64,000 nt of DNA, from sequence record MH791411.1; one strand, written 5' to 3'. Shown piece by piece: positions 27,849 through 63,729 of this stretch. Under the pieces are notes generated by a model that saw only the letters and a list, made by a program, of their open reading frames with translations, did no database searches and was not told where the DNA came from. The translations under genes were made by a program, and so were the position numbers. Numbering within the stretch: position 1 is the first letter of the stretch; each line of letters starts with the position of its first letter. The DNA comes from Escherichia phage Ecwhy_1.

Positions 27849-28074
27849 GTACCTTTTCCTTTATAGAGAATTTAAGATATCGAAGCATACTTTCAATGTA
27901 ATACTCTTGTCTGTCAGTGCCAAGAAAGTACATGAGTTGAATGTATAAAACTTCTGCACTCCTTTCGGCATGTGACTTGTTTGTGTCGTTTGGAAGTTGA
28001 TTTGTAAGTTTTCTGGATTTAATTAGTCGTTCTTTTAACTCATCGTCTGTTAAGTATTTCATTTCATTTTGCAT
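27817..28074 (-). CDS. Fam-B minigene
   Basis: array member, LGTDRQEY. Confidence 0.55.
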   Translation of the reverse strand: MQNEMKYLTDDELKERLIKSRKLTNQLPNDTNKSHAERSAEVLYIQLMYFLGTDRQEYYIESMLRYLKFSIKEKVHAQEFKNPNS

Positions 28075-28294
28075 TTACTTTTTCCTTAATACTCATTACA
28101 AGATGTTCAATCATATTTTGAACCATAAATTCTTGTTTATCAGTTCCAAGAACGTATGGTAGCTTCTGAAACAATACATTCGCAGACATTTCATATATTG
28201 ATTGATTTGGAACGAACTTAAGAGTAATGTTATTGGCTTTTAACATCTTCTCTTGAAATTCTTCATTCGTTAAGTATATCATTTCACTTTGCAT
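28064..28294 (-). CDS. Fam-B minigene
   Basis: array member, LGTDKQEF. Confidence 0.55.
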   Translation of the reverse strand: MQSEMIYLTNEEFQEKMLKANNITLKFVPNQSIYEMSANVLFQKLPYVLGTDKQEFMVQNMIEHLVMSIKEKVNAK

Positions 28295-28520
28295 TTACTT
28301 TTTCCATAATAGTAATTTTGAGATATTTAATTATACGTTCAATGTGATACTCTTGCCTATCAGTTCCAAGAATGTATGGTAATCTTTGGAATAAAACTTC
28401 TGCACTCCTTTCCGCTGGGGTTTGGTTTGGGTTGTGTGGAAGATATTTTGTAAGTTTTTTGGATTTATCTAGTCTTTCTGTTAACTCATCATGTGTTAAG
28501 TATATCATTTCATTTTGCAT
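28284..28520 (-). CDS. Fam-B minigene
   Basis: array member, LGTDRQEY. Confidence 0.55.
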   Translation of the reverse strand: MQNEMIYLTHDELTERLDKSKKLTKYLPHNPNQTPAERSAEVLFQRLPYILGTDRQEYHIERIIKYLKITIMEKVNAK

Positions 28521-28756
28521 TTAATGTTCCTTACGTAAATTGTCTGGATTAAACAATCAATCCAAGTTTGAATATATTGGTTTTGATACTGTGTGCCTAA
28601 GAGACTCTGCATTTTAAACTCTGCTTCAAGTTCATATCTCTTTTCTATAGAAAAGCTCAAATGACCATATTCTTTATCGTATCTTCTCAGTGCTTCCCCA
28701 ATTCTATCAAATCTTTCTGCTAATCTGATGTTATTCACAATATTCATCGCATTCAT
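28505..28756 (-). CDS. Fam-B minigene
   Basis: array member, LGTQYQNQ. Confidence 0.55.
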   Translation of the reverse strand: MNAMNIVNNIRLAERFDRIGEALRRYDKEYGHLSFSIEKRYELEAEFKMQSLLGTQYQNQYIQTWIDCLIQTIYVRNIKCKMK

Positions 28757-29031
28757 CGATCAGTACACCTCAGTGGTTGGGTCATTTGATGAAAGTACAG
28801 CTTACCTCTGATTTCCAGTAGTAACTCAGCAATTAAGCGATTTACTTCTGGCTCTTGATAGTTTGTTCCTAAGAATACACCCATCTTTAACTCACGCATC
28901 ATAATCATTTTCTTACTGTGTTGAATTTCTGGGTTGTGATAGATTGTATTACGTTTGTGCGTAATTTTTGTCATACGCTCGGTATATTCATCTTTACTTA
29001 AATTGATCATTTGCATGTTCATCAACCTCAC
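28753..29031 (-). CDS. Fam-B minigene
   Basis: array member, LGTNYQEP. Confidence 0.55.
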   Translation of the reverse strand: MRLMNMQMINLSKDEYTERMTKITHKRNTIYHNPEIQHSKKMIMMRELKMGVFLGTNYQEPEVNRLIAELLLEIRGKLYFHQMTQPLRCTDR

Positions 29032-29242
29032 ATTTATTTTCGATACAAATCATGAGTTCTCTAAGATAGTTTTTTACCTTACCTGCCTGATAGTTCGTCC
29101 CCAGGAAGTTGCATAACTCTGCTTCTATCATTTTGATTCTTCTGTTATCAGGTTTCAATTTTTTGTTATTGAAGATTTGAATCCTTATATCCCTTGATGC
29201 ATTTAAACGTTTTTGATATTCATGGAAAGATAAATTAATCAT
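28994..29242 (-). CDS. Fam-B minigene
   Basis: array member, LGTNYQAG. Confidence 0.55.
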   Translation of the reverse strand: MINLSFHEYQKRLNASRDIRIQIFNNKKLKPDNRRIKMIEAELCNFLGTNYQAGKVKNYLRELMICIENKCEVDEHANDQFK

Positions 29243-29457
29243 TTACTTTGTATCTCTCTCTTGAGGGCATCAATTAACAACAGTACAGCATTCTCTTGAT
29301 AGTTTGTTCCTAAGACTGAAAGCATCTTAATCTCATTTACTACGATCAACTTCTTTGAGCGTTCAATAATGTTACTATTATAAACGGCGTTACGTGCTGG
29401 ATAAGTTTTTGCAAGACGTTCATAATATTCATCTTTACTTAAATTAATCATTTGCAT
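29239..29457 (-). CDS. Fam-B minigene
   Basis: array member, LGTNYQEN. Confidence 0.55.
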   Translation of the reverse strand: MQMINLSKDEYYERLAKTYPARNAVYNSNIIERSKKLIVVNEIKMLSVLGTNYQENAVLLLIDALKREIQSK

Positions 29458-29666
29458 TTACTTTTGACCTCCTTGACTAATGCATCAACCCACATGTCTA
29501 TATACATTTGTTGATAGTTTGTCCCTATGAGTGCCCCTGCATAGAGTTCAGCTATCAATGCATGTTTTAGGTTGGCAGGGATGCTCTTATCAGATTGAAT
29601 CTTTACTCTTCTGTTGGCACATGTTTTCAGGAGTCTGATGTATTCAAAGCCTTGTAATTTTCTCAT
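29448..29666 (-). CDS. Fam-B minigene
   Basis: array member, IGTNYQQM. Confidence 0.55.
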   Translation of the reverse strand: MRKLQGFEYIRLLKTCANRRVKIQSDKSIPANLKHALIAELYAGALIGTNYQQMYIDMWVDALVKEVKSKCK

Positions 29667-29878
29667 TCTTTTGATATCACCTTGTTACGTAAGGCACTTA
29701 ACAATACGTCAGTGTAGATGTTTTGATAGTTTGTTCCTACGAATACACCCAACTTCATTTCAGCTATTATAACACATTTGTCCTCTTGTGCAATAGACTT
29801 GTCTAAAGAAATACTAACAACTTTCCTTCTTATAGCTTGTAACCTCCAATGATACTGAAACTCATTTAGGGTTATCAT
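29663..29878 (-). CDS. Fam-B minigene
   Basis: array member, VGTNYQNI. Confidence 0.55.
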   Translation of the reverse strand: MITLNEFQYHWRLQAIRRKVVSISLDKSIAQEDKCVIIAEMKLGVFVGTNYQNIYTDVLLSALRNKVISKE

Positions 29879-30113
29879 TCTCTCGCCTCCATATCTCGGT
29901 TCTAATGTGTTGACATTGTGCTTCGATGAACATATCTATTGATTTGGCAATTGCTTTTTTATCAGTGCCTGTCATCAGTACAAGCATCTCGGCCTCACAG
30001 TGAAGTAAACGCATGATATCATAGGGTAATATTCCAGATACCGTGTCATAGTGTTTCTGTGCCAGTGTCTGTAATAGTTTACAATACATTTTGTGATTTA
30101 GTCTTTGTCGCAT
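29862..30113 (-). CDS. Fam-B minigene (divergent)
   Basis: array member, TGTDKKAI. Confidence 0.45.
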   Translation of the reverse strand: MRQRLNHKMYCKLLQTLAQKHYDTVSGILPYDIMRLLHCEAEMLVLMTGTDKKAIAKSIDMFIEAQCQHIRTEIWRRENDNPK

Positions 30114-30370
30114 TGTCTATTCCATTCTTTTTTGGCCTTGATGGTTTTATATTGGATTTGGTTTCTTAATGCTGATAAGTATCGTTGAATGAACAGATCT
30201 TGATAGTTTGTTCCAATGAATTTCATAAGATAAAGTTCACCGTTGATAACATCCACTTCAGGTGCACCATATAAGGCATTGTTTTTTCTAAGGGCATGGA
30301 TTAAAGAGAATAGGGCAGTTTGATACTCAACTCCTGATAAAGTCTTCATGTTTTGTGAGCCAATAATCAT
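30098..30370 (-). CDS. Fam-B minigene
   Basis: array member, IGTNYQDL. Confidence 0.55.
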   Translation of the reverse strand: MIIGSQNMKTLSGVEYQTALFSLIHALRKNNALYGAPEVDVINGELYLMKFIGTNYQDLFIQRYLSALRNQIQYKTIKAKKEWNRQCDKD

Positions 30371-30590
30371 CTAGTTTATCCTGTATAACATTCATTAATT
30401 GTTCGACATATTCTGTGCAAAACTTATCTTGATATTGAGTCCCCATAAAGTACAGCAACCATAGCTCATTAACTTTAGCTCGCATTTGGTTCCATGTAAG
30501 GCTGGGGTCATCGTAGACTATCCTTGCTATAGGGGTTAGTTTACGGACTATAGTTTCATATTCATCTAGTGTTAAGTGTTTCATTTGCAT
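30327..30590 (-). CDS. Fam-B minigene
   Basis: array member, MGTQYQDK. Confidence 0.55.
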   Translation of the reverse strand: MQMKHLTLDEYETIVRKLTPIARIVYDDPSLTWNQMRAKVNELWLLYFMGTQYQDKFCTEYVEQLMNVIQDKLDDYWLTKHEDFIRS

Positions 30591-30799
30591 TTGTCCCTTA
30601 TTAAATCAGTGAGGGCAACTATGTGTGCAACAACATACTCTTCCTGAAAGTTCGTCCCCAGTACAGCCATCATGCGTATATCGGTGGTGTTTATTCTGTG
30701 TTCCCTTACACATAAACCTTCTGTGTGAGGAAGTGTAAAATATTTGTTTATTGCAGCAACGATAATTTTATTCTTCTCGTAATTACTTAAATGTTTCAT
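30581..30799 (-). CDS. Fam-B minigene
   Basis: array member, LGTNFQEE. Confidence 0.55.
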   Translation of the reverse strand: MKHLSNYEKNKIIVAAINKYFTLPHTEGLCVREHRINTTDIRMMAVLGTNFQEEYVVAHIVALTDLIRDKCK

Positions 30800-31008
30800 A
30801 GTTTGCTCTTAATGTATTTCTGGAGTGCAATTATATACTCATTCAAGAAGTGCTCCTGATAATCTGTGCCGAGGAATGCACCCAATAGTATATCATTTTC
30901 CAATACTAATGCTAAGTTTAAATCATCAGTCTCTTCATATACTATGAGAATTTCAAGTTGTCTGGCAGCGACGCGTTCGGTATATAGATTTGAGTTAATG
31001 CTATTCAT
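30796..31008 (-). CDS. Fam-B minigene
   Basis: array member, LGTDYQEH; near-duplicate of next gene. Confidence 0.6.
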   Translation of the reverse strand: MNSINSNLYTERVAARQLEILIVYEETDDLNLALVLENDILLGAFLGTDYQEHFLNEYIIALQKYIKSKL

Positions 31009-31217
31009 AGTTTACTCTTAATGTAATTCTGGAGTGCAATTAAGTATTCCCCTACATAATACACCTGAAAGTCTGTATCCAAAAATGCACCCATAAGTAA
31101 ATCTTTTTCTAATACCCTTGATAAGTTAAGGTCTGCATTTGAATTGTATATAATTAAGATTTTATTCTGGACAGAAACAAAACGTATCTTATATTCTTCT
31201 GGTGTTAAAAAAATCAT
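31005..31217 (-). CDS. Fam-B minigene
   Basis: array member, LDTDFQVY. Confidence 0.55.
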   Translation of the reverse strand: MIFLTPEEYKIRFVSVQNKILIIYNSNADLNLSRVLEKDLLMGAFLDTDFQVYYVGEYLIALQNYIKSKL

Positions 31218-31423
31218 AGTTTACTCTTAATATCTTCTATTAAAAAATGAATCCAATCATCAACATACTCTTCCTGATGGTTTGTGTTCAGTACAGCCAA
31301 CATGCGGATCTCTGCTCTTGCAACTTGGATTTCAGTTTTAGAAAGGTCTTTGCTGATATCAAACATTAAGTCCATGTATTTCAAGATAAGACCGAATGAT
31401 TGGGTTCGTGTTATAGTTTTCAT
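31214..31423 (-). CDS. Fam-B minigene
   Basis: array member, LNTNHQEE. Confidence 0.55.
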   Translation of the reverse strand: MKTITRTQSFGLILKYMDLMFDISKDLSKTEIQVARAEIRMLAVLNTNHQEEYVDDWIHFLIEDIKSKL

Positions 31424-31620
31424 TGTTTCCTCGTGGACAATATTTCATTTTTCAATGCATCCATATATTGAATCACCCATCTTCCCTGATAGCTTGTACC
31501 CAATGTAATCAAAAGGTATAACTCAATTCGTTCTAAGTTTGTGTCTGTGTTATAAATCTTTACCATGTTTTTACGTAACAGTTCTTGATAATCTTCTTTA
31601 TTTAAAATACGCATTTTCAT
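31420..31620 (-). CDS. Fam-B minigene
   Basis: array member, LGTSYQGR. Confidence 0.55.
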   Translation of the reverse strand: MKMRILNKEDYQELLRKNMVKIYNTDTNLERIELYLLITLGTSYQGRWVIQYMDALKNEILSTRKQ

Positions 31621-31814
31621 AGTCTACCTTTTATGTCCCTTCGTAATTCTTGTAAGTATAGTTCGATATACTTTTCTTGATAGTTAGTTCCTATGAAAAG
31701 TTTCATAACCAATTCACGCTTATATGCAATACCACGGATATGTGACATATGTAAGATATATGCCATGTTGGATATGAGTGTGTGGTTGTGCTCTTCTTGA
31801 GTTAAAATACGCAT
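31617..31814 (-). CDS. Fam-B minigene (first of array)
   Basis: IGTNYQEK; TTGACT ... TATTAT promoter about 31840-31875 upstream. Confidence 0.55.
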   Translation of the reverse strand: MRILTQEEHNHTLISNMAYILHMSHIRGIAYKRELVMKLFIGTNYQEKYIELYLQELRRDIKGRL

Positions 31815-52744: not shown

Positions 52745-52956
52745 AGTCGAGAAAGACTCAAGCCCACCGGGTGCATAGTTACGCCCAAAATTCAGTACTG
52801 AAAAAATTTTTAAAAATATCCGGCCAGGCCGTTGACATTGCCCCCAGTTTATAAGATAATGATTCCAGATTCAGAAAAATCTAACACCAGATACTGCGGG
52901 GAAACTATCCCCACGCGGTAGGGGAACTATTGGAAAAAACAAAATAAAATTTTGAT

Positions 52957-53100
52957 TTAGCCGTCTATACTTCCAGACGTGTAACCATCTAGCCGTTTAG
53001 CCGTCCAAACGTCTAGCCATCCAGCCATCCAGAAATCTAGCCGTTTAGCCGTCTAGATGGATAGCCATCTTTACTTCCAGACTTCTGGAGGGCTAGACAT
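52957..53100. repeat. 8-bp periodic tandem repeat array (about 18 units, consensus TAGCCGTC)
   Basis: in-register 8-mers tagccgtc/tagccgtt/tagccatc/cagccatc ...; flanked by TACTTCCAGAC repeats and CCAGAcTTCTGG palindrome. Confidence 0.7.
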
Positions 53101-54166
53101 ATCTACGCCCAAAATCCATCCAGGGTAACTACGCCCAAAATCCGTCAGTACTATACCATAGATCTATCTTTTGAAAGGGAGTATTCAGTACTGCCATCAT
53201 AGCCCTCACTATGTTACCCTAGGAGGATGAAGACCATCATGTAGTACTGAATACTGTTAGAGGGAATCCACCAGCTTGTGCTGGTGGCATAATGCTTTAG
53301 ATTAAAATCAGTACTGACACCATTCTGTTAATATCAGTACTGTTATTACGATTTTCATATGAGGTTCAAAAAGATGTACCACCACAGGAGGAACTATCTT
53401 TTCTGTACTGTCTCACGACAGGAGGTAGAGTAAATGAATTGTTCGCAGCAACTCATCACCCTATGTAGAACATTATACAGTACTGAATCATAAAGTCAAT
53501 AACTTTCTTTCATCTTTCAGTACTGATATTCTTGAGAACTACCCGACTACAAACATCATTATATCCCACAAATCATAAACGTCCCAACGTAAATTTCAAC
53601 TTTCGAAGATCCAACTTTTATTTCATAGGTACTCCAAAATTTTTAGGATCGAGATTTAGGATGGAGTACTAACCAACTTTTTGCTGGAGCCTCAAGGGGT
53701 AATGGAATTTTACCCCGAAGGGTAAAGGGGTAATTGAAATTAAGGTGAAAGTAATAATTCAGTACTAATCATTGCGTGATTACTTTTGATTACATTTGAT
53801 GTAATTTGCAAAATGGAAAAGGAGCTTGGAAACTACAAAGTACGGCAGACTTCCTCTGCCTACTTAGTGGGATATCGCCACCTTCAGTACTGAATACTTT
53901 TAGGGCAGTACTGAATCCTTCCCTAGCATTCTTGAGTAATCTTGTCTATAATAATCAGTACTGAATCATATATAATCATTCTGTGATTCTACGGTGCTCA
54001 TATAAATGTTTATATATGATTACTTATGACTACATATGATTACGGGGTTTAGCCTGGGGAGAATCCTAGTGATCGCATTTGTCCAGGCTGAATTTTAACA
54101 ATTCTTCTAATTGTTAAAGCCTGTCCAATGCTTTCCCTGCGGAGCTTCCCCTGTCTATATGTTGAA

Positions 54167-54373
54167 TTACTTCCTATATATAAGCATTAACATATAGTAG
54201 TACTGATTATGCTGTACATTCTCTTTAATATTATAAGGGTCTATAGCAATCTCGGTACATCTGTTAAATGCATATCTATTAAATGCCAGTACTATTATAG
54301 ATCTAATCCATGCTTGGTCAGTCGGTGGTAGTTTACTTATATAGTACTCTTTATAGTTTTTTATGTTCTGCAT
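54167..54373 (-). CDS. Fam-C minigene
   Basis: KEYY N-terminus, LIYRK C-terminus. Confidence 0.5.
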   Translation of the reverse strand: MQNIKNYKEYYISKLPPTDQAWIRSIIVLAFNRYAFNRCTEIAIDPYNIKENVQHNQYYYMLMLIYRK

Positions 54374-54384
54374 AGTATACCTTA

Positions 54385-54576
54385 TTATTTCAAAGTACCA
54401 TATAGTACTCTTAATAGGAAGTAGTACGTATTAGAGATATCATTAGTAGTTAAAACAATCTTTGTACACATATTAAATTCGTATTGAGTCATTGCCAGGG
54501 GGATTAAATTGTTAACCCATGCTTGTTCGTTTTCTTTTAGTTTACTTATATAGAAATCTTTATGTTCTTTATTCAT
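54385..54576 (-). CDS. Fam-C minigene
   Basis: MNKEHKDFY ... LRVLYG. Confidence 0.5.
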   Translation of the reverse strand: MNKEHKDFYISKLKENEQAWVNNLIPLAMTQYEFNMCTKIVLTTNDISNTYYFLLRVLYGTLK

Positions 54577-54778
54577 ATAGGAATAGTATACCTATGATGC
54601 CGGAGTACATATTAGTACTGTTATTATTGTCGTTTGCGTTTAAAGTCATTTGAATACAATTATTGTAGCATACTCTGCCGAAATAAGTATCAGTACTTAA
54701 AGGTGCTGTAGTCCTTAGAAACATTTGTTCTGTGGGGCTGAGGTGTTTGGAGTAGAATTCTTTATGTTCTTTATTCAT
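54569..54778 (-). CDS. Fam-C minigene
   Basis: MNKEHKEFY; near-duplicate of 55152..55358. Confidence 0.55.
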   Translation of the reverse strand: MNKEHKEFYSKHLSPTEQMFLRTTAPLSTDTYFGRVCYNNCIQMTLNANDNNNSTNMYSGIIGILFLYE

Positions 54779-54783
54779 ATTAG

Positions 54784-54969
54784 TTAGTGTCTGTATATAA
54801 GTAATAGTAAGAATACGTACTGCACCTGTTCATCTTTAGTATTGAGTACTGTACGTATTGCGTCATGGAACAAGAATATAGTACTTGGGTCATTAGAATT
54901 TAAGGGGTTTACGGGGACGGCGTGTTTGTAGTTCCCTTTAACAAATTGTGTGTAGTATTCTCTATGCAT
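54784..54969 (-). CDS. Fam-C minigene
   Basis: MHREYY ... LLLIYRH. Confidence 0.5.
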   Translation of the reverse strand: MHREYYTQFVKGNYKHAVPVNPLNSNDPSTIFLFHDAIRTVLNTKDEQVQYVFLLLLIYRH

Positions 54970-54970
54970 A

Positions 54971-55159
54971 TCAGTACCTATATATTAGGGCGAGAATGTA
55001 GTACAGTTTATATGTATTATAATCTGGGTTGATAGCACATAGTGTGTGGTAGTGGAATTGTTTGGTATTTTTCTTATCCTTGATATCTATTGGGTTTAGT
55101 GGTATAAGCATTTGGGAGTTTAGTTCCAGATGGTTTAAGTAGAATTCTTTGTTATTCAT
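54971..55159 (-). CDS. Fam-C minigene
   Basis: MNNKEFY ... LALIYRY. Confidence 0.5.
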   Translation of the reverse strand: MNNKEFYLNHLELNSQMLIPLNPIDIKDKKNTKQFHYHTLCAINPDYNTYKLYYILALIYRY

Positions 55160-55358
55160 AGAAGAATATTAGTCCCATTACGCCTGAGTACTGAATATTT
55201 TTGTTATTGTTTTCTAAAGCTTCTAGAGTAATACGTATACAATTATTAAAGCAATCTCTGGCGTGTGGTGTATCTAAACTTAAAGGTGATACACTCCTTA
55301 GAAACATTTGTTCTGATGCACTGAGGTGTTTGGTGTAAAATTCTTTCTGTTCGTTCAT
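55152..55358 (-). CDS. Fam-C minigene
   Basis: MNEQKEFYTKHLSASEQMFLR. Confidence 0.55.
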   Translation of the reverse strand: MNEQKEFYTKHLSASEQMFLRSVSPLSLDTPHARDCFNNCIRITLEALENNNKNIQYSGVMGLIFFYE

Positions 55359-55368
55359 ATTGGCCTCT

Positions 55369-55557
55369 TTAGTACACGAAAGCTAGGTACAGGGTATGAT
55401 ACAGTACTCGATGATAGCTATCAAAATCTAGTATACATGCTTTAGTGCACATAGTAAAGTACACTTTATCGTTTTGAGCATTGATACCGCGAGGTTTATC
55501 TAATAGATTAGTACTGAGGTACATTGGGAAATATTTTGTGTAGTATTCTTTATGCAT
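55369..55557 (-). CDS. Fam-C minigene
   Basis: trimmed to MHKEYYTKYF. Confidence 0.45.
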   Translation of the reverse strand: MHKEYYTKYFPMYLSTNLLDKPRGINAQNDKVYFTMCTKACILDFDSYHRVLYHTLYLAFVY

Positions 55558-55558
55558 A

Positions 55559-55747
55559 TTAGTACCTGAATATAAGTAGGATAGTGTTATATAATTGGTC
55601 ATAGCTACTACTATTTTCTATACTGCGTTCTATGCAATTATTGAATCCCAGTACTGCCAAATCGTTATCCAGGGGGACTTTATATCTGGCGTAGTGTTCA
55701 AAAATACTGGGGAGAAATTGTGTGTAGTATTCTTTGTGGTTGTTCAT
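55559..55747 (-). CDS. Fam-C minigene
   Basis: MNNHKEYY ... LLIFRY. Confidence 0.5.
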   Translation of the reverse strand: MNNHKEYYTQFLPSIFEHYARYKVPLDNDLAVLGFNNCIERSIENSSSYDQLYNTILLIFRY

Positions 55748-55748
55748 A

Positions 55749-55940
55749 TTAGTACTTATATATTAGTAAAAGGATGTGATACAGTACTCTATTATAGTCC
55801 TCAATATCTATCGAGGATTTAGTGCACTTAATGAAATAGTCTTTTTCGTAGTCTTTTTCTATACTCAATTGTTTTGTTGGTACAAGGTGTTGGAGATACA
55901 TTGGGAGTTTCTCTATGTAGTATTCTTTGTGGTTATTCAT
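55749..55940 (-). CDS. Fam-C minigene
   Basis: MNNHKEYY ... LLLIYKY. Confidence 0.5.
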   Translation of the reverse strand: MNNHKEYYIEKLPMYLQHLVPTKQLSIEKDYEKDYFIKCTKSSIDIEDYNRVLYHILLLIYKY

Positions 55941-55948
55941 ATTATGTG

Positions 55949-56122
55949 TTATTTCGTGAAAACAAGGGTTAGTACTGCATAGTACAAGTCATACGTATCT
56001 TTAGGGTTAATAGCACCTTTAATACATTCTTTCATTACTTCATTATAGATAATTTTAGTACTGAATGTATTGGATGTTACTATATCGGAATTAAGGTACG
56101 AGAGGTAGAATTCTTTATACAT
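55949..56122 (-). CDS. Fam-C minigene
   Basis: trimmed to MYKEFYLSYL. Confidence 0.45.
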   Translation of the reverse strand: MYKEFYLSYLNSDIVTSNTFSTKIIYNEVMKECIKGAINPKDTYDLYYAVLTLVFTK

Positions 56123-56774
56123 AGTTTGTAATATACGTAATGAGGTGATGAAATTTCTTATCAGTACTGATAAGTTCCTGTACATGTTTTGTTAGTTTGT
56201 ACGCGTTTTTATAGAGTCCTGGATTATCGATTACAGTACTGTACATGAATTCTTCTTCCTCGGATAATTCTTTGTGTTCTAGTTCTTTGAGGAATTGCAG
56301 TACTGTATCAGTTTCGTTAGTACGTTGCTTTTGGAAGAAGTGCATGTTATCGTGTATTTTTTCTGAACCCATGCAGTACATATCGCCGATTTGGAATTGT
56401 GCAGTACTGATATCATGGGTGCTATTACAATTCCCGAAGAAGTATACATTCCCGAAAGATAGAATTATAGTGCACGGGATATTATCCATGTGTATATAGA
56501 TAGATGCATTCTTTAGTGCTTTTGTGCTGGTATTAGTACTCAATACTTTTAAATCAGTATTATAGATATTAATAAAAGCAAGAGCTATATTATTTTTCTT
56601 CAAGTACGATTTGAGGTTCTTAGATACGAGAACATTTCTGGATTTTTTCTTTTTATTTCGTTTCTTTAGTACATTTGGGTCGTAAGTATATACTGGTGTA
56701 AAAGATTCTGCTTGAATACTGTTGAGGTATTTAAAGTGCTTAAGGTATTGTTTACTGTGTGCATTAAGTTTCAT
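56115..56774 (-). CDS. Fam-A-like protein (outlying copy)
   Basis: core SEEEEFMYSTV near C-terminus. Confidence 0.5.
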   Translation of the reverse strand: MKLNAHSKQYLKHFKYLNSIQAESFTPVYTYDPNVLKKRNKKKKSRNVLVSKNLKSYLKKNNIALAFINIYNTDLKVLSTNTSTKALKNASIYIHMDNIPCTIILSFGNVYFFGNCNSTHDISTAQFQIGDMYCMGSEKIHDNMHFFQKQRTNETDTVLQFLKELEHKELSEEEEFMYSTVIDNPGLYKNAYKLTKHVQELISTDKKFHHLITYITNYV

Positions 56775-56785
56775 TTGGTTTTCCT

Positions 56786-56965
56786 TTATACAGATGCGAG
56801 AGCGAGGATTTCCCTGAAGGGATTATCTTTTGTTAGTGCGTGATGAATGCAGCTATTGAGATTAATATTTTTAGTACTGTTAGTTGCCAGGTTGTAGTAC
56901 TTCACGAAGGTGTCGTACATGAAACGGTCTTTAATGCTTATGTGTTCTATATAGTATTCTTGCAT
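56786..56965 (-). CDS. Fam-C minigene (59 aa)
   Basis: hand-translated MQEYYIEHI ... ILALASV; below track size cutoff. Confidence 0.4.
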   Translation of the reverse strand: MQEYYIEHISIKDRFMYDTFVKYYNLATNSTKNINLNSCIHHALTKDNPFREILALASV

Positions 56966-56973
56966 ATTATTCC

Positions 56974-57162
56974 TTACATAGAGATGAGTTTCAGTACATC
57001 AATATACATATAACGTTCAGATGACATTACACGGGTAGTGATAATCTCAATCGATATATTTTTAATTCCATGTGCAGATGATTGATGGTGCTGAATAAAT
57101 GAGTTGTGCATACTTTGTTCTATGTGGTTTAGTTTATTGAAGTAGTACTCAAAAGTGTTCAT
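56974..57162 (-). CDS. Fam-C minigene
   Basis: MNTFEYYFNKL ... VLKLISM. Confidence 0.5.
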   Translation of the reverse strand: MNTFEYYFNKLNHIEQSMHNSFIQHHQSSAHGIKNISIEIITTRVMSSERYMYIDVLKLISM

Positions 57163-57168
57163 GTCTAC

Positions 57169-57348
57169 CTTAGATTGAGATTAGTTTAAGTACTTCTCTG
57201 TACGTGTACTTTTCGTTTTGTGCTTCTACTGTACATGATAGTAGGTATCGTTTTTTATCTCTTTTGTTCCCGACTGTGTAGTACCTTTGGAATTTATTAT
57301 AGTTGTATCTATCTTTGTGCTGGAGGTTATAGATATAGAATTCTTGCA
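57169..57348 (-). CDS. Fam-C minigene (59 aa)
   Basis: hand-translated MQEFYIYNL ... YTYREVLKLISI; coordinates approximate. Confidence 0.4.
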
Positions 57349-57357
57349 TAGAGTACC

Positions 57358-57543
57358 TTATATTGCTATCAGTTTGAGTACTTCAATATATGTGCGGTAC
57401 TCTGCTTTAATTAAATTTGTACACACTGTAAGGGAATTTCTTTGTATAAGTTTATTGCCGCTTTTATACGCATTTCTCCACACATAGAGATGAGATCTTT
57501 CAGGCATAGATAGTTTATTTGTATAGTACTCAAATGTATTCAT
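57358..57543 (-). CDS. Fam-C minigene
   Basis: MNTFEYYTNKL ... VLKLIAI. Confidence 0.5.
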   Translation of the reverse strand: MNTFEYYTNKLSMPERSHLYVWRNAYKSGNKLIQRNSLTVCTNLIKAEYRTYIEVLKLIAI

Positions 57544-57551
57544 ATATTACC

Positions 57552-57734
57552 TCAAATAGAGATTAGTTTAAGTACTTCTCTGTATGTGTACTTTTCGTTT
57601 TGTGCATCTCTTGTGCTTGTATATAGGTATCCTCGACGATATTTGTTGCTCCCGTTCTTGTAGTTGAATTCGAACTTATTGTAGATGAATCTATCGCCAG
57701 GCTGTAATTTACTTAAGTACAATTCAATGCTCAT
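57552..57734 (-). CDS. Fam-C minigene
   Basis: trimmed to MSIELYLSKL; C-terminus YTYREVLKLISI. Confidence 0.5.
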   Translation of the reverse strand: MSIELYLSKLQPGDRFIYNKFEFNYKNGSNKYRRGYLYTSTRDAQNEKYTYREVLKLISI

Positions 57735-57744
57735 AGTATTCTCT

Positions 57745-57930
57745 TTACATATCAATAAGTTTCAGTACTGCTCTGTACGTGTACTTAGTTGTTAGTGCTT
57801 CTTTTATAGCAATACAGAAGTAATGTTGTTTGTCTCTTATACTACCGCGTTTGTAGTACCATACATTGGAGTTGTGGGTGTACTTGTCCCTGTCGGATAG
57901 ATTTAGGTAATAGTATAATATATGATTCAT
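57745..57930 (-). CDS. Fam-C minigene
   Basis: MNHILYYYLNL ... VLKLIDM. Confidence 0.5.
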   Translation of the reverse strand: MNHILYYYLNLSDRDKYTHNSNVWYYKRGSIRDKQHYFCIAIKEALTTKYTYRAVLKLIDM

Positions 57931-58139
57931 GGTAATGTAATTAGCCTTATTATGTTAAAGTACTCGGTCCCTGGTACACCTTGTAGAATATTATCAACTA
58001 CATTTTCTTGGTGCAGGATTAATACATTCGGTGCGGTTCTTTTAAGGTTTTTTAAAGTACTGTATTCTTGTTTAAGGATGAACTGTACATCTTTAGGGAG
58101 AATATCTAAGTAGTACTGGTGTATGTTCATAGTTTTCAT
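57927..58139 (-). CDS. Fam-C minigene
   Basis: QYYLDILP ... IIRLITLP. Confidence 0.5.
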   Translation of the reverse strand: MKTMNIHQYYLDILPKDVQFILKQEYSTLKNLKRTAPNVLILHQENVVDNILQGVPGTEYFNIIRLITLP

Positions 58140-58150
58140 ATAGTACTCTT

Positions 58151-58336
58151 TTAGAACTTAAAGATGAGGTTCATGATAGATAAGTACTTAGTTTCAGGAA
58201 ATTGATGTTCTATTGCATAACGTGTCTCCAGTCTGAAGTCAAATTTATAAAAGGGACTATTCATATCCATAGGTTCATTGGGAAATGAATCTCTGTATTG
58301 TTTGTGCAGCTTACTACAGTAGAATTCTTTATACAT
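58151..58336 (-). CDS. Fam-C minigene
   Basis: MYKEFYCSKL ... MNLIFKF. Confidence 0.5.
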   Translation of the reverse strand: MYKEFYCSKLHKQYRDSFPNEPMDMNSPFYKFDFRLETRYAIEHQFPETKYLSIMNLIFKF

Positions 58337-58337
58337 A

Positions 58338-58550
58338 TTAGTGCTCGATTAAAAGGGTTAGGATGTAATAGTATTGCATACTTTCTACCCCTTGTACAGC
58401 ATTTCTTATTTTATTATTCCTGTACGAGTTCAAGAGTTTAGGACAATGTTTGAAGTTTATATAATTATTTTGTGTATACAGTAGGCTTTCTCGTAGACCT
58501 TTTGTTGGTAGTGCATCGATGTAGTACTGTTCAATGTTCATAGTGTTCAT
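58338..58550 (-). CDS. Fam-C minigene
   Basis: EQYYIDALP ... LTLLIEH. Confidence 0.5.
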   Translation of the reverse strand: MNTMNIEQYYIDALPTKGLRESLLYTQNNYINFKHCPKLLNSYRNNKIRNAVQGVESMQYYYILTLLIEH

Positions 58551-58774
58551 AGAGCTACCAGTACTAAGATTTTTGATAATTGTTTGTTTCTATCCCCGCA
58601 GATGTTGTTGTGTAAAATGCTCACTACAAGGGTATCAAGTGCATTGTTCAGCATAAGGTTACATCCAGTACTGTTATATTTTTTTAGCTCAATTAGCCAC
58701 GAACAATCCGCGAGAAATTTCCCGTACTCTAGTTCATTTAGCGTATTAATGTAGTACTTAAGTGTAGTTGTCAT
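58547..58774 (-). CDS. Fam-C-like minigene (first of minus-strand block)
   Basis: LKYYINTL ... ILVLVAL; upstream region is divergent with plus-strand block. Confidence 0.45.
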   Translation of the reverse strand: MTTTLKYYINTLNELEYGKFLADCSWLIELKKYNSTGCNLMLNNALDTLVVSILHNNICGDRNKQLSKILVLVAL

Positions 58775-58845
58775 GTGTAGTTCTCCTTATATTCCTTCTA
58801 TAGTACACCAGTACTGAAAGGATGTCAAGGGTTTTGTTTATGGGG

Positions 58846-58853
58846 TATAAATA
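58846..58853 (+). promoter_or_regulatory. TATAAATA box (T4-late-promoter-like) upstream of first RCC1-like gene
   Basis: TATAAATA about 28 nt before ATG, followed by AAAGGAG SD; no -35 hexamer. Confidence 0.35.
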
Positions 58854-58880
58854 TGATATAATGAATAAAGGAGAAGAAAT

Positions 58881-60029
58881 ATGTTACCTTTTGTTAGAAT
58901 GTTTGATTATGGGAATGAAGCACCTACCAACTCTGGGCGTTTTAAAATATATTCCAGTGATTCTATGTATCTTCATGATACTTATACTGACAAGTTGTAT
59001 GCATCTTCTGCGACGAATTGGGGTACTGGTACAGGTGTAGCATCGAGTAAATTTATTCTTTGTGCGGAGAATGTTAAACGAGTTCTATTGGAAGATAACA
59101 GTAGTGATTGTCAATTGTATGAAGAGAAAGGTACTGGAAAAGTTTTTATCACTGGTAACACGAAGGCATTCACTGGTGTAACTGATAGAAAAACTTTGTG
59201 GACGGACTGTACTACGTGGATAACATCAAGTGGTATTAATGTTTCTGATATAAAATACATGAGTAGTTTTTATGATATGAAGGTGAATTTGATAACAAAC
59301 GATGGTACATTGTATTGTTGTGGAGCTAACAATATATCGAACATATCATCATTTGGTGATGGCACAAACATTAATTCTTTTAACACATTCAAAAGAGTAG
59401 ATACTATAACTTCGGTTAAAAAGGCAGTTGGTAACATTTATTTGCGAGAAGATAATACTTTATGGGGTTGTGGTTTTAACTATTACTACCAGTTGGGCAC
59501 GGGTAATCAAACTTCTATTACTGGGGTGACGATGATTTCTTCGGATGTTATAGATTTTAATGTAAGTTATCAGAGTACATTTTTTATCAAATCGGATAAT
59601 AATTTGTACGCTTGTGGTAAACAGTTCGGTGCACAATATGGGAACGAATTTGGTACAGGTGGTACTTCTACATCTACAGATATACAATATAAAACTCCCA
59701 CATTATTGAGTGCAGGTGTTTATAGTTTATATACTTGTGTTGGTAACATGGCATCACATATAGTTAAAGGTGATGAAGTACTTTATGCATCTGGAAGCAA
59801 CTCGTCTGGTCAATTAGGTGTTGGTAATAATAATAATCAGTACTCCTATACTCCTTCATATACTTCGTTTAATACCTCTTGTAATTTGGTACGCACCCCA
59901 TCTGGTTCACTTATACTTACTGATACTGGAAAATTATATTATTGTGGCCTTGCAATAGTAGTAATGGGTGGTATTTCTGGACAGAACGTTCTTAATTATA
60001 CAGAAGTCGATATGTCATTTTTGCAGTAA
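58881..60029 (+). CDS. RCC1-like repeat (beta-propeller) protein
   Basis: seven or so GxNxxGQLGxG-type repeats; N-terminus MLPFVRMFDYGN shared with downstream paralogs. Confidence 0.7.
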   Translation: MLPFVRMFDYGNEAPTNSGRFKIYSSDSMYLHDTYTDKLYASSATNWGTGTGVASSKFILCAENVKRVLLEDNSSDCQLYEEKGTGKVFITGNTKAFTGVTDRKTLWTDCTTWITSSGINVSDIKYMSSFYDMKVNLITNDGTLYCCGANNISNISSFGDGTNINSFNTFKRVDTITSVKKAVGNIYLREDNTLWGCGFNYYYQLGTGNQTSITGVTMISSDVIDFNVSYQSTFFIKSDNNLYACGKQFGAQYGNEFGTGGTSTSTDIQYKTPTLLSAGVYSLYTCVGNMASHIVKGDEVLYASGSNSSGQLGVGNNNNQYSYTPSYTSFNTSCNLVRTPSGSLILTDTGKLYYCGLAIVVMGGISGQNVLNYTEVDMSFLQ

Positions 60030-60037
60030 ATTAATAT

Positions 60038-60062
60038 GCCAGTACTTGATACTGGCTTTTTT
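60038..60062 (+). terminator. rho-independent terminator
   Basis: GCCAGTActtgaTACTGGC hairpin plus T6. Confidence 0.65.
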
Positions 60063-60096
60063 GATTAAATATAGTATAATGAATAAAGGAGGAAAT

Positions 60097-61206
60097 ATGT
60101 TACCTTTTGTAAGAATGGTTAAGTACGGGAATATTGCACCAGTACCGAAAAAAATAAAGAAAGTTATAGCAGGATATGATAATTTATATGTACTATATGG
60201 TGATGGTTCGCTATATGGTTGTGGAATCAATAACTATCAACAGTTAAATATTGATGGAACTGCTACACAAAATAATTGGGTACTAATTACCAATGGTGTT
60301 AGTAATGCATGGGCTGGTGGATACAATATTTTATATTTGAAAGAAGATAAATTTATAATGCACGGAACTAATGTCTCATTAGGTTTAGGAAATACTACAA
60401 TTCCATTAGGTGGAGTAGATGTAACTTCTTCATTCCCAGATATCTCTAATATTAAAATGATATCCATTGGTTTTGATTCAATGCACTATGTTAGTGCTGA
60501 TGGTACAACTGTATATGGAAGAGGTATGAACACAAATGGTTCTGTTGGTTCAGGTAGTACTTACTCACAGAGTACTTTCACTTCAGTACTGAATAATGGA
60601 ACTAATCAGGTTATTGATATATTTGGTAACGTTAATAATACAGTGCTTCTAACATCGAATGGTGAGCTTCGAGCATGTGGGACAAGTGCTTATGGTTCTA
60701 TAGGAAATGAAACTGGTAAGTGGACATCGTTTGGTTTAAAATTATCTGGCACTAAAATAATGGGTGGTAATGGGTATAGTACGCTTGCATATACAAATTC
60801 GGGAATGTACCACTCAGGGTGGCAGTTAAATGGGGAACTAGGAAATGGTTTAGATACTAACGTACAGGTATATCCATTTCAATTTAACTCTAAAACGATA
60901 GATAGCAAGATAGATAAAATTGCCAAATCATCATCTGGGTCATATGTTAACATGTACTCAACAACAGAAGGAAAGATATATACGACAGGTTCGTTTGGTA
61001 AAAACGGGTCAACTACTGCATTGAATTTGTTCACCAATACATTAACACTTATAAATTACAATCCAGATACCGCCTCGTTGTATACGTGCACAAACTTCAG
61101 TGTTGTGTATGATGGTAATGAAACTATTGCTGTAAGTGGTAGTCCTACATATGTACCAGGGGGCGTTGCCGCTAATAGATGGACTACAATTCCATTACCC
61201 AAGTAA
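60097..61206 (+). CDS. RCC1-like repeat protein
   Basis: track ORF 59968..61206 trimmed to ATG after AAAGGAGG SD; N-terminus MLPFVRMVKYGN. Confidence 0.7.
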   Translation: MLPFVRMVKYGNIAPVPKKIKKVIAGYDNLYVLYGDGSLYGCGINNYQQLNIDGTATQNNWVLITNGVSNAWAGGYNILYLKEDKFIMHGTNVSLGLGNTTIPLGGVDVTSSFPDISNIKMISIGFDSMHYVSADGTTVYGRGMNTNGSVGSGSTYSQSTFTSVLNNGTNQVIDIFGNVNNTVLLTSNGELRACGTSAYGSIGNETGKWTSFGLKLSGTKIMGGNGYSTLAYTNSGMYHSGWQLNGELGNGLDTNVQVYPFQFNSKTIDSKIDKIAKSSSGSYVNMYSTTEGKIYTTGSFGKNGSTTALNLFTNTLTLINYNPDTASLYTCTNFSVVYDGNETIAVSGSPTYVPGGVAANRWTTIPLPK

Positions 61207-61212
61207 TACTAT

Positions 61213-61245
61213 GCCAGTACTTGAGTACTGGCTTTTCTTTTTGAT
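61213..61245 (+). terminator. rho-independent terminator
   Basis: GCCAGTACttgaGTACTGGC hairpin plus T-run. Confidence 0.65.
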
Positions 61246-61277
61246 TAAATATAGTATAATGAATAAAGGAGGGAAAT

Positions 61278-62459
61278 ATGTTACCTTTTGTTAGAATGTT
61301 TGATTATGGGAACGTCGTTGAGCCACCTGTGGGTACACGTTATACCTGTAGTGACTATAGTGCGACTTATAGTTTAATAAAGGATGGTGTGTTATATGTA
61401 TCTGGGATGAATAACTATTATCAGTTAGGTAATAACACTAACGTAACACGTTACAACGAGTGGTTAAAAGTTCCAGAGACTGATAGTGTTAAGTTTTGTA
61501 GTACTGGTTATAGTCAGACAATGTATCTGACTAACAATGGTAGGATAATGATAGCAGGTGAAGATCCTACTTCCAGTGCGACGGCGGTAAGTGTAAAGGT
61601 TTGGACGGATATAACTTCTAGATTTAGTGCAGTTGATACTAAAAAGATTGTTTATATTTCAATAGAACGTTATGGTGTAATGATGATCATGGAAGATGGT
61701 TCAGTATGGGCGTGTGGTGTTGATAATACTGGTTGGAGTGGACAAGGGAGTAAGACTGTTGGTTTCTTTACTTTCAGACAAATATACACCGGAAGTGCAG
61801 GAAGTGCAGTTGCTTGTACTGCTGGTACTGGCACTTCGAGGATTCTATTAGTTGATGGTACAATATTGTCCTCTGGTACTAATACATATCATCAATGTAA
61901 TGCTAGTACTGATCTGGCTGTTCTAACATACACTGAATCATTCCCTGGGGTTGATCCTTCATTGATATATCAAGTCAAGATGTGTAATAACAACTGTATT
62001 ATATTCTTGAGTGATAAGAGATATTATGGTACTGGTTGGGGGAGTTTTGGTGCTTTGGGTGATGGTGATATTTCGGGTTCGAATAATAAATTCTATGCTG
62101 GTACATTGTCAGTTGCTCCTAAAAACATGCGTGCTTATATGTCGTATCTATGTAGTTCTGCTGGGGATTCTAGTATGTACATAGGCGATGATAATTTCAT
62201 ATACACCTGCGGTTATCGTGGGAGGAACTTAATAAATGCCACTACAGATATTGGGACGTTCACGAAATGCATTCAAAGTGCACAAGGATACAAGAATGGA
62301 CTTATATATAGTGGGAATTATTGTGCTGTAGTTTTTGATCCAGATTTGGGTTCAGGAATGACATATGCGGTTTCATCACCAAAAGTGAATGCACCAGCAC
62401 CACAGGCGAGTGTTCCAACATTGGGTATGAGTTCGTTACAAGCTATTATTTTACCATAA
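61278..62459 (+). CDS. RCC1-like repeat protein
   Basis: N-terminus MLPFVRMFDYGN; RCC1-type Gly-rich repeats; AAAGGAGGG SD. Confidence 0.7.
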   Translation: MLPFVRMFDYGNVVEPPVGTRYTCSDYSATYSLIKDGVLYVSGMNNYYQLGNNTNVTRYNEWLKVPETDSVKFCSTGYSQTMYLTNNGRIMIAGEDPTSSATAVSVKVWTDITSRFSAVDTKKIVYISIERYGVMMIMEDGSVWACGVDNTGWSGQGSKTVGFFTFRQIYTGSAGSAVACTAGTGTSRILLVDGTILSSGTNTYHQCNASTDLAVLTYTESFPGVDPSLIYQVKMCNNNCIIFLSDKRYYGTGWGSFGALGDGDISGSNNKFYAGTLSVAPKNMRAYMSYLCSSAGDSSMYIGDDNFIYTCGYRGRNLINATTDIGTFTKCIQSAQGYKNGLIYSGNYCAVVFDPDLGSGMTYAVSSPKVNAPAPQASVPTLGMSSLQAIILP

Positions 62460-62466
62460 CATTATA

Positions 62467-62500
62467 CCAGTACTGAAATACGTACTGGTATTTTTTTTGT
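62467..62500 (+). terminator. rho-independent terminator
   Basis: CCAGTACtgaaatacGTACTGG hairpin plus T8. Confidence 0.6.
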
Positions 62501-62535
62501 AAATACATTATAATTATTATATGGAGATTTTAGTT

Positions 62536-63729
62536 ATGTTACCTTTTGCAAGAATGGTTAAGTACGGGAATAAACTGCCTATTCCTGAACCAGTTGAGTT
62601 CACTGATGTTTTACAGCAACATTATACTAATGCTATGTATCTACATAAGCCCACGAATACACTATACGGTTATGGTGGTAATAACTTGAGCCAATTAGGT
62701 CTAGGGAATCAATCGGCAGTTTCAACTTTTACAGTACTGGCAACGCACTGTGCAGCCTTTTGGTTAGGCGTTCATGGATCATTGATGATTGACTTGGATA
62801 ATAGAATATATTTCACAGGGAATACAGTAGCATTCCCCGATTATGGAGATGCAACTCCAGTTAATGGTTATTTTAGAACATGGACTGATGTTACTGCCGC
62901 ATTTAACAAAATAAATATACACGCTAATTTAATCAAGAGTGTACATATAGGTGAAAGTACTAGAATATTACTACACGATGGAAGAGTCGTTGTTTGTGGT
63001 AAAAATGCAAATGCCGAATGTGGAACAGGTAACCAAAATCCCATTCCAGTACTAACAGTTGTTACTGGTATGGGTGAAGTTTCTCAATTGGCGTGTTCAT
63101 TACAGGGTACGCACTATCTCAAAACAAATAAAGAAGCATGGTTTTGTGGTAAGGATAACTTTGGTGAAAGTGGTGGTGGGACTAGCTCATACGTTTTTAC
63201 TAATAAATTAATACGAACCAACGTCGATTATATAAGTACTACTTATGATGTTACCTGGTGGTTTACTGCCGGTAGGGTGTACTGGAGTGGTAGAAACAAT
63301 TCTGGACAAGCTGGGAATGGTACTACTTCAACTACAAACCAATTAACTACAGTTCAGAATTCACAGGTTATAGTGAATATTAGTGATGGTTTCCTGTGTC
63401 CTAGTAATATGGGTAACTCAACAATTGGTGCACCTATGGCTCAATACCCATCATATGTCAGGAGTGCAGGCATCAATACATATGGTCAAGAAGGGACGGG
63501 AAATACAACAATAATTACTTCGTGGGGGGCGTTTTCTTTAAGTGCGATACAGGGTGGATATGACAATGTTCTTATGGCATCCAAAGACTGGTCCAGAACA
63601 ATAATTATAACTAAAGATTATAAATTATATGCATGTGGGGGCTTTAACGGTTCAGGTAGTAAATTACCGGATGGTACTTACTTAATTAAAACATTAACAT
63701 TAATGCCAACGCAGTTATGGCAACAATAG
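62536..63729 (+). CDS. RCC1-like repeat protein
   Basis: track ORF 62521..63729 trimmed to MLPFARMVKYGN; RCC1-type repeats. Confidence 0.65.
   Translation: MLPFARMVKYGNKLPIPEPVEFTDVLQQHYTNAMYLHKPTNTLYGYGGNNLSQLGLGNQSAVSTFTVLATHCAAFWLGVHGSLMIDLDNRIYFTGNTVAFPDYGDATPVNGYFRTWTDVTAAFNKINIHANLIKSVHIGESTRILLHDGRVVVCGKNANAECGTGNQNPIPVLTVVTGMGEVSQLACSLQGTHYLKTNKEAWFCGKDNFGESGGGTSSYVFTNKLIRTNVDYISTTYDVTWWFTAGRVYWSGRNNSGQAGNGTTSTTNQLTTVQNSQVIVNISDGFLCPSNMGNSTIGAPMAQYPSYVRSAGINTYGQEGTGNTTIITSWGAFSLSAIQGGYDNVLMASKDWSRTIIITKDYKLYACGGFNGSGSKLPDGTYLIKTLTLMPTQLWQQ

Follow-up and report, generated by a model that had tools for sequence, protein, structure and literature searches.

Positions 54167–58774 of a 64,000-nucleotide (nt) stretch of Escherichia phage Ecwhy_1 (sequence record MH791411.1; the whole stretch is called the window here) contain two arrays of short paralogous genes, designated Fam-C. 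The block was found to be a polycistronic operon of 21 translationally coupled cistrons, conserved among related phages and adjoining the inner boundary of the direct terminal repeat (DTR). The family is old, and 19 of its 20 candidate minigenes are demonstrable members by sequence comparison. The products were predicted to be small (~60 amino acids, aa), soluble four-helix proteins. As a whole, the operon is best explained as an early, host sigma-70-driven set of small binders for host takeover or counter-defence, a reading to which we give about an even chance.

Operon architecture and position at the terminal repeat

The minus strand of 54167–58774 was occupied by a single block of 21 tightly coupled genes, comprising 20 minigenes (57–75 aa) and one 219-aa gene. 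The same open reading frames (ORFs) are annotated in the WPEC5, JP4, and SHEFM2K records. The initial annotation, made from the letters of the window, had proposed about 20 co-oriented minigenes in two arrays, and this was borne out: all 20 lie on the minus strand, and 97.8% of one strand of the block was covered by 22 ORFs that begin with ATG and encode 55 aa or more (mean 6% and maximum 24% in 300 dinucleotide-preserving shuffles). At the 20 junctions, consecutive genes overlapped by at most 8 nt or were separated by at most 11 nt (−8 to +11 nt), and the Shine-Dalgarno sequences AAGG, GAGG, or AGGT were located 5–8 nt upstream at many of them. Based on the WPEC5 record and the family alignment, the starts of C07 (55557), C10 (56122), and C15 (57734) were moved to a conserved internal ATG. 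Since C10 starts at 56122, array 1 ends there and not at 56185 as first proposed.

The operon is 4.6 kb long and is transcribed leftward, in the order C20, array 2, the 219-aa gene, and array 1. Its features are listed below from the promoter onward, followed by those beyond its last stop codon; sub-families CI–CIII are defined after the list.

58800..58828, minus strand: sigma-70-type operon promoter (TTGACA, 17-bp spacer containing AGTACTG, TACTAT), from a consensus scan
58783..58789, minus strand: strong Shine-Dalgarno sequence TAAGGAG upstream of the first cistron, invariant in 8 phages
58547..58774, minus strand: C20, 75 aa, first cistron; N-terminal KYY..L is family-like, membership unsupported
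58338..58550, minus strand: C19, 70 aa, sub-family CIII
58151..58336, minus strand: C18, 61 aa, sub-family CI
57927..58139, minus strand: C17, 70 aa, sub-family CIII; present only in some phages
57745..57930, minus strand: C16, 61 aa, sub-family CII
57552..57734, minus strand: C15, 60 aa, sub-family CII; no ortholog of at least 60% identity in phAPEC6, Sharanji, and PBECO4
57358..57543, minus strand: C14, 61 aa, sub-family CII; no ortholog of at least 60% identity in phAPEC6, Sharanji, and PBECO4
57170..57349, minus strand: C13, 59 aa, sub-family CII
56974..57162, minus strand: C12, 62 aa, sub-family CII
56786..56965, minus strand: C11, 59 aa, sub-family CII
56115..56774, minus strand: 219-aa gene between the arrays, phrog_29152
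55949..56122, minus strand: C10, 57 aa, sub-family CI; 8-nt overlap between its start and the end of the 219-aa gene
55749..55940, minus strand: C09, 63 aa, sub-family CI
55559..55747, minus strand: C08, 62 aa, sub-family CI
55369..55557, minus strand: C07, 62 aa, sub-family CI
55152..55358, minus strand: C06, 68 aa, sub-family CI; closest relatives elsewhere lie in array 2
54971..55159, minus strand: C05, 62 aa, sub-family CI
54784..54969, minus strand: C04, 61 aa, sub-family CI
54569..54778, minus strand: C03, 69 aa, sub-family CI
54385..54576, minus strand: C02, 63 aa, sub-family CI; no ortholog of at least 60% identity in six compared phages
54167..54373, minus strand: C01, 68 aa, sub-family CI, last cistron; protein modelled by AlphaFold
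54037..54101, minus strand: ultra-conserved non-coding block between the last stop codon of the operon and the DTR boundary
31912–53864: DTR, inner boundary at 53864, mapped from the WPEC5 repeat

In all-against-all BLASTP, 19 of the 20 minigenes were linked at E < 0.1, C20 being unlinked. At E < 1e-3, two groups were obtained (C01–C10 with C17–C19, and C11–C16), and three sub-families were adopted: CI (C01–C10 and C18), CII (C11–C16), and CIII (C17 and C19). The profiles of CI and CII aligned full-length over 54 columns (hhalign, P = 1.7e-4), and CIII was tied to the family by the BLASTP match of C01 to C19 (E = 1.3e-6). These links, together with the intact ORFs found across phages, confirmed the two arrays as a real paralogous minigene family. 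C20 was considered as a divergent member, which was not supported: hhalign comparisons with the family profiles gave P = 0.0095 to 0.24 over just 8–13 columns, and no family hidden Markov model (HMM) match was obtained even at E up to 10. The promoter-proximal C20 is thus not demonstrably a family member on sequence grounds; its orthologs were 76–79% identical, with a ratio of nonsynonymous to synonymous differences per site (pN/pS) of 0.42. No further Fam-C member was found elsewhere within the window by HMM search.

The N-terminal (K)E(F/Y)Y..(K/H)L motif described initially was recovered in an alignment of 60 family sequences, with E9 in 70%, Y11 in 98%, and position 10 always aromatic or hydrophobic; further conserved positions were L15, F36, C39, L44, Y58, L62, L64, and I65. 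In CI, the C-terminal codons AGG TAC TGA/TAA (R-Y-stop) double as the AGGT of the ribosome-binding site of the next gene, and conservation of the C-terminus may therefore partly be a translational-coupling constraint.

The promoter and TAAGGAG are located within a 106-bp divergent intergenic region upstream of C20, in which eight phages hardly differ. Even the divergent phage JNE01 has an identical −35 element, a spacer of equal length, and TACAAT as its −10 element, yet its Fam-C proteins are <40% identical to those of the window. The promoter belongs to a class, TTGACA/TTGCAA-N9-AGTACTG-TATAAT, whose strict minus-strand matches number 13 in the DTR, with the Fam-C site in addition (0.02 expected by chance). 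Outside the DTR, this strand carries no member of the class other than the Fam-C promoter. The small genes of the DTR are spaced by gaps of ~60–100 bp, and at least 13 are preceded by a near-identical promoter of this class. A ScaI site lies within the 8-nt palindrome CAGTACTG, of which the window has 69 copies (0.62 expected), with a dense concentration in 31912–53990.

The repeat was delimited from WPEC5, in which bases 1–21,662 are 100% identical to 359,665–381,326, giving a DTR of 21.7 kb. A 20,993-bp DTR was found by PhageTerm in phage fEgEco12 and confirmed by restriction digests (PMC13070987); this phage is 98.5% identical to the window in the region of the operon, and the start of its right DTR copy (353,741) maps to window base 53,864. 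The window is thus a collapsed junction, with Fam-A, Fam-B, the DTR, Fam-C, and divergent RCC1-like genes in this order. The Fam-C block is outside the DTR, 303 bp from its inner boundary, and Fam-B ends 98 bp from the other boundary, so that the terminal repeat lies between arrays of paralogs. As the operon ends ~300 bp short of the boundary, it is the first unique block beside one repeat copy in the packaged linear genome. The GC content was 0.36–0.41 in the DTR vs 0.29–0.34 in its flanks.

Conservation, age, and distribution of Fam-C

Megablast with 54000–59000 matched 35 genomes of jumbo coliphages and Salmonella phages in the genus Asteriusvirus (PBECO4/121Q/phAPEC6 group), with EC.P1 as the top match (99.3% identity). 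The deposited annotation under the match was 'hypothetical protein' throughout, followed by RCC1-like 'chromosome condensation regulator' genes. Family ORFs in relatives were counted by HMM scans of ORFs called anew. The counts for array 1 + array 2 were 10+9 in the window and WPEC5, 10+7 in phAPEC6, 9+7 in Sharanji, 10+6 in PBECO4, 9+9 in SP27, and 11+9 in JP4 and SHEFM2K, i.e., 9–11 copies in array 1 and 6–9 in array 2. In JNE01, 14 members were found in the same order of promoter, leader gene, short array, ~220-aa gene, and long array. Family ORFs were intact in all 8 phages including JNE01. Absence of conserved ORF boundaries in related genomes had been named as evidence that would speak against the arrays; the boundaries were conserved across the eight related phages.

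The records of phAPEC6, Sharanji, and PBECO4 (array regions ~3100–7200) annotate 3–9 of 17–18 intact ORFs, the latter being the 16–17 Fam-C ORFs found by HMM plus the ~220-aa gene. With most ORFs unannotated in these reference records, proteomic and comparative studies that rely on them miss Fam-C.

Pooled pN/pS of orthologs (Nei-Gojobori) was 0.43, with 0.0–0.78 for individual genes and a value of 2.4 for C12 that rests on just 2 synonymous differences. Strongly constrained members were C07 (0.13), C08 (0.08), and C13 and C14 (both 0.0). In the same phage pairs, the neighbouring RCC1-like and DTR genes gave 0.20–0.26; the minigenes are therefore constrained, yet evolve ~2x faster than their neighbours. 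Judging from these ratios, Fam-C orthologs are under purifying selection. Orthologs of at least 60% identity were missing from some or all compared phages for C02, C10, C12–C15, and C17.

The arrays had been described as containing near-duplicates that arose by recent tandem duplication. Neither part of this description held. The two pairs in question were only 59–60% (54569 vs 55152; 74% nt identity, synonymous divergence [dS] 0.63) and 39% (56974 vs 57358; dS 2.3) identical at the aa level, and the best DNA repeats within the region were 72–74% identical. Other close paralog pairs had dS values of 0.54–1.2, whereas orthologs across the sampled phages had dS of ~0.1–0.3. A neighbour-joining tree of 140 members placed every gene of the window in a tight cluster with its orthologs, internal branches were long, and many ortholog groups had a JNE01 sister. 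Since paralog dS exceeds ortholog dS and paralog groups are shared between phages, the family is old and has evolved by birth and death; recent 'accordion' amplification was rejected. By these distances and the tree, the paralogs predate the radiation of the phages.

C06 (55152–55358) is situated in array 1, and its closest relatives in six other phages are in array 2, between the orthologs of C18 and C19 (phAPEC6 locus 6743–6952, L005 6920–7129, and others). This placement points to a relocated gene, or to an old duplicate that was lost differentially.

From 5.8 billion proteins, a word-indexed search retrieved 46 clusters, and every cluster with a named source was from an Escherichia or Salmonella jumbo phage of the group. 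An exhaustive HMM search of 1.84 billion representatives gave 32 matches, 31 of which were proteins of 59–69 aa; the remaining one, an 845-aa repeat protein, was discarded as spurious. The most divergent matches were from JNE01 and Turkey5, both also Asteriusvirus, and one locus was found in a scan of IMG/VR. As far as these databases reach, Fam-C is restricted to only one genus, Asteriusvirus.

Scans of all members against Pfam and NCBIfam gave no match, and among PHROGs only phrog_11711 (unknown function) was matched, by 11 of the 20 members (best E = 1.9e-27); the other 9 had no match to it at E up to 0.01. This PHROG consists of the same proteins, as PBECO4/121Q-like 'hypothetical proteins', and is cited in the SHEFM2K annotation. 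Unlike the family defined here, it takes in only CI and some others and leaves out the CII members, and neither function, structure, nor genomic context is described for it. The arrays themselves were not described in any publication found by literature searches. Relative to the literature found, the family definition, fold, operon, promoter class, duplication age, and DTR-relative position are new; the sequences themselves are not, their ORFs being in GenBank and partly in a PHROG.

Predicted fold and possible function

The protein of C01 was modelled with AlphaFold2 from a 60-sequence alignment, with a predicted local distance difference test score (pLDDT) of 83.8 and a predicted template modelling score of 0.71. 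The model has helices at residues 4–12, 17–24, 33–44, and 53–66 and suggests that Fam-C proteins are small, soluble four-helix bundles. Conserved core-type residues (hydrophobic or aromatic) are on helices 1, 3, and 4, and helix 2 and the loops are most variable and hold the indels. Tyrosine makes up 10.2% of residues. The isoelectric point (pI) varies from 5.5 to 9.6 across members, with CII being basic (9.4–9.6). A fold search gave no PDB or otherwise informative match and no helix-turn-helix or other DNA-binding fold, and neither sequence-family nor fold searches revealed homology to known effectors. The GC skew of the plus strand flips from about −0.1 to +0.17 near 54 kb, with genes remaining on the minus strand (54000–58774). 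This is probably caused by the amino-acid composition of Fam-C, in which residues with G-initial codons are scarce (Gly 1.9%, Ala 3.3%, Val 3.8%).

In the explanation that we prefer, the operon would be transcribed leftward from the 58800–58828 promoter by unmodified host RNA polymerase, early and alongside the terminal-repeat genes. Its products would be small protein binders, each paralog with a host or defence target of its own. The family arose by old tandem duplications and evolves by birth, death, and relocation of members; a core of hydrophobic and aromatic residues in helices 1, 3, and 4 is retained, and helix 2, loops, and net charge vary. From the promoter class and from relatives, we infer that host RNA polymerase transcribes the operon early and under common regulation with the DTR genes. 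In phage PA5oct, which relies on host RNA polymerase, most DTR genes are highly transcribed early according to RNA-seq (PMC7318152), and in phage CBB a block of small ORFs with RpoD-like promoters is suspected to be an early host-takeover region (PMC5259590). The virion proteome of phAPEC6 (62 proteins) includes the adjacent gp549 and gp551 and none of the annotated family members gp540c–548c (PMC7247149). For the effector role of each paralog, we infer by analogy with early small-gene modules of phages and terminal multigene families of other viruses. Such binders would be compatible with a core that is conserved beneath a variable surface, with differences in charge, with accelerated protein evolution, and with gain and loss of genes, none of which proves them.

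Several points weigh against this explanation. The pN/pS of 0.43 could reflect relaxed constraint and not diversifying selection. Early timing is deduced from the promoter type and from relatives, and literature searches found no Asteriusvirus transcriptome. Counts of consensus promoters in this AT-rich region were not above chance overall, so that the promoter argument rests on conservation and the common motif class. As the operon is transcribed toward the terminus, its repeat-adjacent position by itself implies no early entry and was not used as evidence of it. Finally, the negative result from the virion proteome is weak, as only ~8 of the 17 ORFs of the family are annotated in phAPEC6 and few peptides are obtained from small proteins.

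Terminal early host-takeover modules are known from several phages, such as the terminal-redundancy genes 37–60 of SPO1, the pre-early genes of T5, the Tre genes of Kayvirus, and the small early ORFs of T4. Like Fam-C, these modules and the PA5oct DTR are blocks of numerous small ORFs without assigned function near the terminus (non-virion in those modules and probably so in Fam-C), with strong host-sigma-70-type promoters and ribosome-binding sites. They consist mostly of unrelated genes, often with a promoter each, whereas Fam-C comprises ~20 paralogs of one predicted fold in a single operon just outside the repeat, for which early expression and host targets are proposals. Terminal multigene families are also found in large eukaryotic DNA viruses, namely MGF100, 110, 360, and 505 of African swine fever virus (ASFV) and the terminal host-range families of poxviruses. 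These resemble Fam-C in being tandem paralogs that flank terminal repeats, vary in copy number between strains, evolve faster than core genes, and are lineage-restricted. There is no homology between them and Fam-C, the Fam-C proteins are far smaller, and the Fam-C duplications are old and not accordion-like recent amplifications.

In a bolder form of the proposal, which we regard as a tentative one with a clearly minor chance, Fam-C would be a hitherto unrecognised mini-binder scaffold and a modular arsenal for counter-defence or host takeover. Each paralog would neutralise a different bacterial protein, be it an immune sensor or a housekeeping one, and host range would be set in part by the composition of the arrays, which differs between close phages. 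If true, it would be a phage counterpart of the ASFV and poxvirus families. Rak2-like and Asteriusvirus jumbo phages are in development for therapy, and >80% of their genes are without assigned function. Here, ~5 kb of 'hypothetical proteins', largely unannotated in PBECO4, phAPEC6, and Sharanji, is turned into a defined unit with one promoter, one operon, one predicted fold, and ~20 diversified copies at the edge of the terminal repeat. If its products are host-directed effectors, they would offer ~20 natural variants of a 60-aa scaffold for screening inhibitors of E. coli proteins or defences, and the array might contribute to an explanation of why near-identical phages differ in host range. 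Should they be something else, gene calls are nevertheless corrected and the repeat boundary and promoter class mapped for the genus.

Among the alternatives, the one that survives best, improbable as we consider it, is that the proteins serve the phage machinery, as DNA-binding or regulatory adaptors, possibly for CAGTACTG, or as chaperones of replication, transcription, or packaging near the terminus. It draws on the excess of the palindrome (69 vs 0.6 expected) and its presence in the promoter class, on the adjoining terminal-repeat boundary and ultra-conserved non-coding block, and on the basic pI of CII, but ~20 divergent, variably charged paralogs with presence/absence differences fit core housekeeping poorly, and the fold search returned no DNA-binding fold. 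We rate as slightly less probable still that the minigenes are mostly dispensable ballast, kept under weak selection in the spare capacity of a jumbo genome and lacking individual targets. A pN/pS ~2x that of neighbours, gain and loss of members between close relatives, and confinement to one genus would all be expected of ballast; however, pN/pS is clearly below 1 and at most 0.13 in C07, C08, C13, and C14, no frame is broken in any of the 8 phages, JNE01 among them, and the promoter and ribosome-binding site are almost invariant.

Delivery of the proteins with the DNA, as virion-packaged internal or ejected proteins, appears quite unlikely. The products of the adjacent RCC1-like genes (gp549 and gp551) are phAPEC6 virion components, and jumbo phages package many small proteins. 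However, the annotated gp540c–548c are absent from the 62 virion proteins, and the promoter is of the sigma-70 early type and not of the late type (ATAAATA) described for relatives.

More doubtful again, to the point of being very improbable, is that they are small membrane proteins (holin-like or for superinfection exclusion) anchored by the C-terminus, as implied by the emphasis of the initial annotation on hydrophobic C-termini. The C-terminal motifs LLLIYRY and VLKLISI are hydrophobic, and conservation of L62, L64, and I65 shows that the motif is real; the suggested membrane role was not upheld. The hydrophobic run is just ~10 residues and the maximum 19-residue Kyte-Doolittle mean is 1.13, and thus there is no membrane segment. 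The model packs the C-terminus as helix 4 (53–66) of the compact bundle, with a segment pLDDT of 86–90. Lastly, that the ORFs are chance or relic frames in repetitive DNA, as the mostly unannotated ORFs in the older records of PBECO4, phAPEC6, and Sharanji might suggest, is refuted by ORF packing far beyond that of shuffled controls (97.8% vs maximum 24%), reading frames intact in all phages examined, substitutions biased toward synonymous ones, and a family alignment that yields a confident fold prediction.

Separator gene, neighbouring arrays, and boundary DNA

The 219-aa gene between the arrays (phrog_29152, unknown function) was kept in every phage examined, with a pN/pS of 0.47. It had been called Fam-A-like, and this assignment was rejected: Fam-A members fall in five other PHROGs (29816, 15629, 13866, 9317, and 12674), and the gene shares with them just one 17-column motif (hhalign, P = 3.7e-4). 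This motif, F.YSTV, is encoded by CAGTACTG, translated S-T-V. Sequence searches gave no Pfam or PDB relative and 23 homologs, all within the same phage group, and the AlphaFold model was unusable (pLDDT 37). The C-terminal 65 residues were considered as a fused Fam-C unit and rejected (hhalign P = 0.11). An AGTACTG-type element is located in the gene at 56234–56241.

Fam-A forms several sub-clusters at 1–25 kb of the window. Fam-B consists of 27 overlapping minus-strand paralogs (63–92 aa) at 25297–31814 and one member at 11169–11360, and belongs to phrog_4148 (unknown function). Like Fam-C, both are arrays of co-oriented, tightly packed paralogs of unknown function in the same leftward-transcribed block. 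They belong to other PHROGs and have no detectable sequence relationship to Fam-C: the profile-profile comparison proposed initially gave hhalign probabilities of at most 0.4% with 1–18 columns aligned. In a Fam-A sub-family (6546–15575), the motif EEYYFQxSTVYxEE was observed at 12213, 13827, and 15218. It is encoded by ...AGTACTG-N2-3-TACAAT/TATAAT, which resembles the core of the DTR promoters, and this DNA may represent internal promoters embedded in coding sequence.

An ORF-poor stretch of ~1.3 kb (52854–54167) spans the DTR boundary and contains many CAGTACTG copies, an 8-nt tandem repeat TAGCCGTC in ~12 copies (52958–53056), ATGATTACAT in 3.8 copies (54006–54043), and one strong promoter on the minus strand (53472–53499). 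In the 54037–54101 block, a core of ~42 nt (TTGTTAAAATTCAGCCTGGACAAATGCGATCACTAGGATTCT) was identical in 8 phages including JNE01. The block could act as a signal for packaging or at the terminus, or as a 3′-end element of an mRNA. The surrounding 186 nt fold with z = −4.1, with too little covariation for the 3′-flank to be called an RNA structure, and Rfam gave only a sub-threshold chance match in the region. No canonical intrinsic terminator was found after the operon; a hairpin at 53844–53860 is without a proper U-tract.

The palindrome CAGTACTG was found in promoters, in the ORF-poor terminus-proximal DNA, and in Fam-A coding sequence (as S-T-V); such strong over-representation of a palindrome is unusual for a phage. 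On the other side of the operon promoter, four tandem RCC1-like paralog genes are located on the plus strand (58881–63729); two have homologs among the virion proteins of phAPEC6 (gp549 and gp551). The first RCC1-like gene is preceded, 18 nt upstream and on the same strand, by TGATATAAT (58854–58862), an extended −10 element that is invariant.

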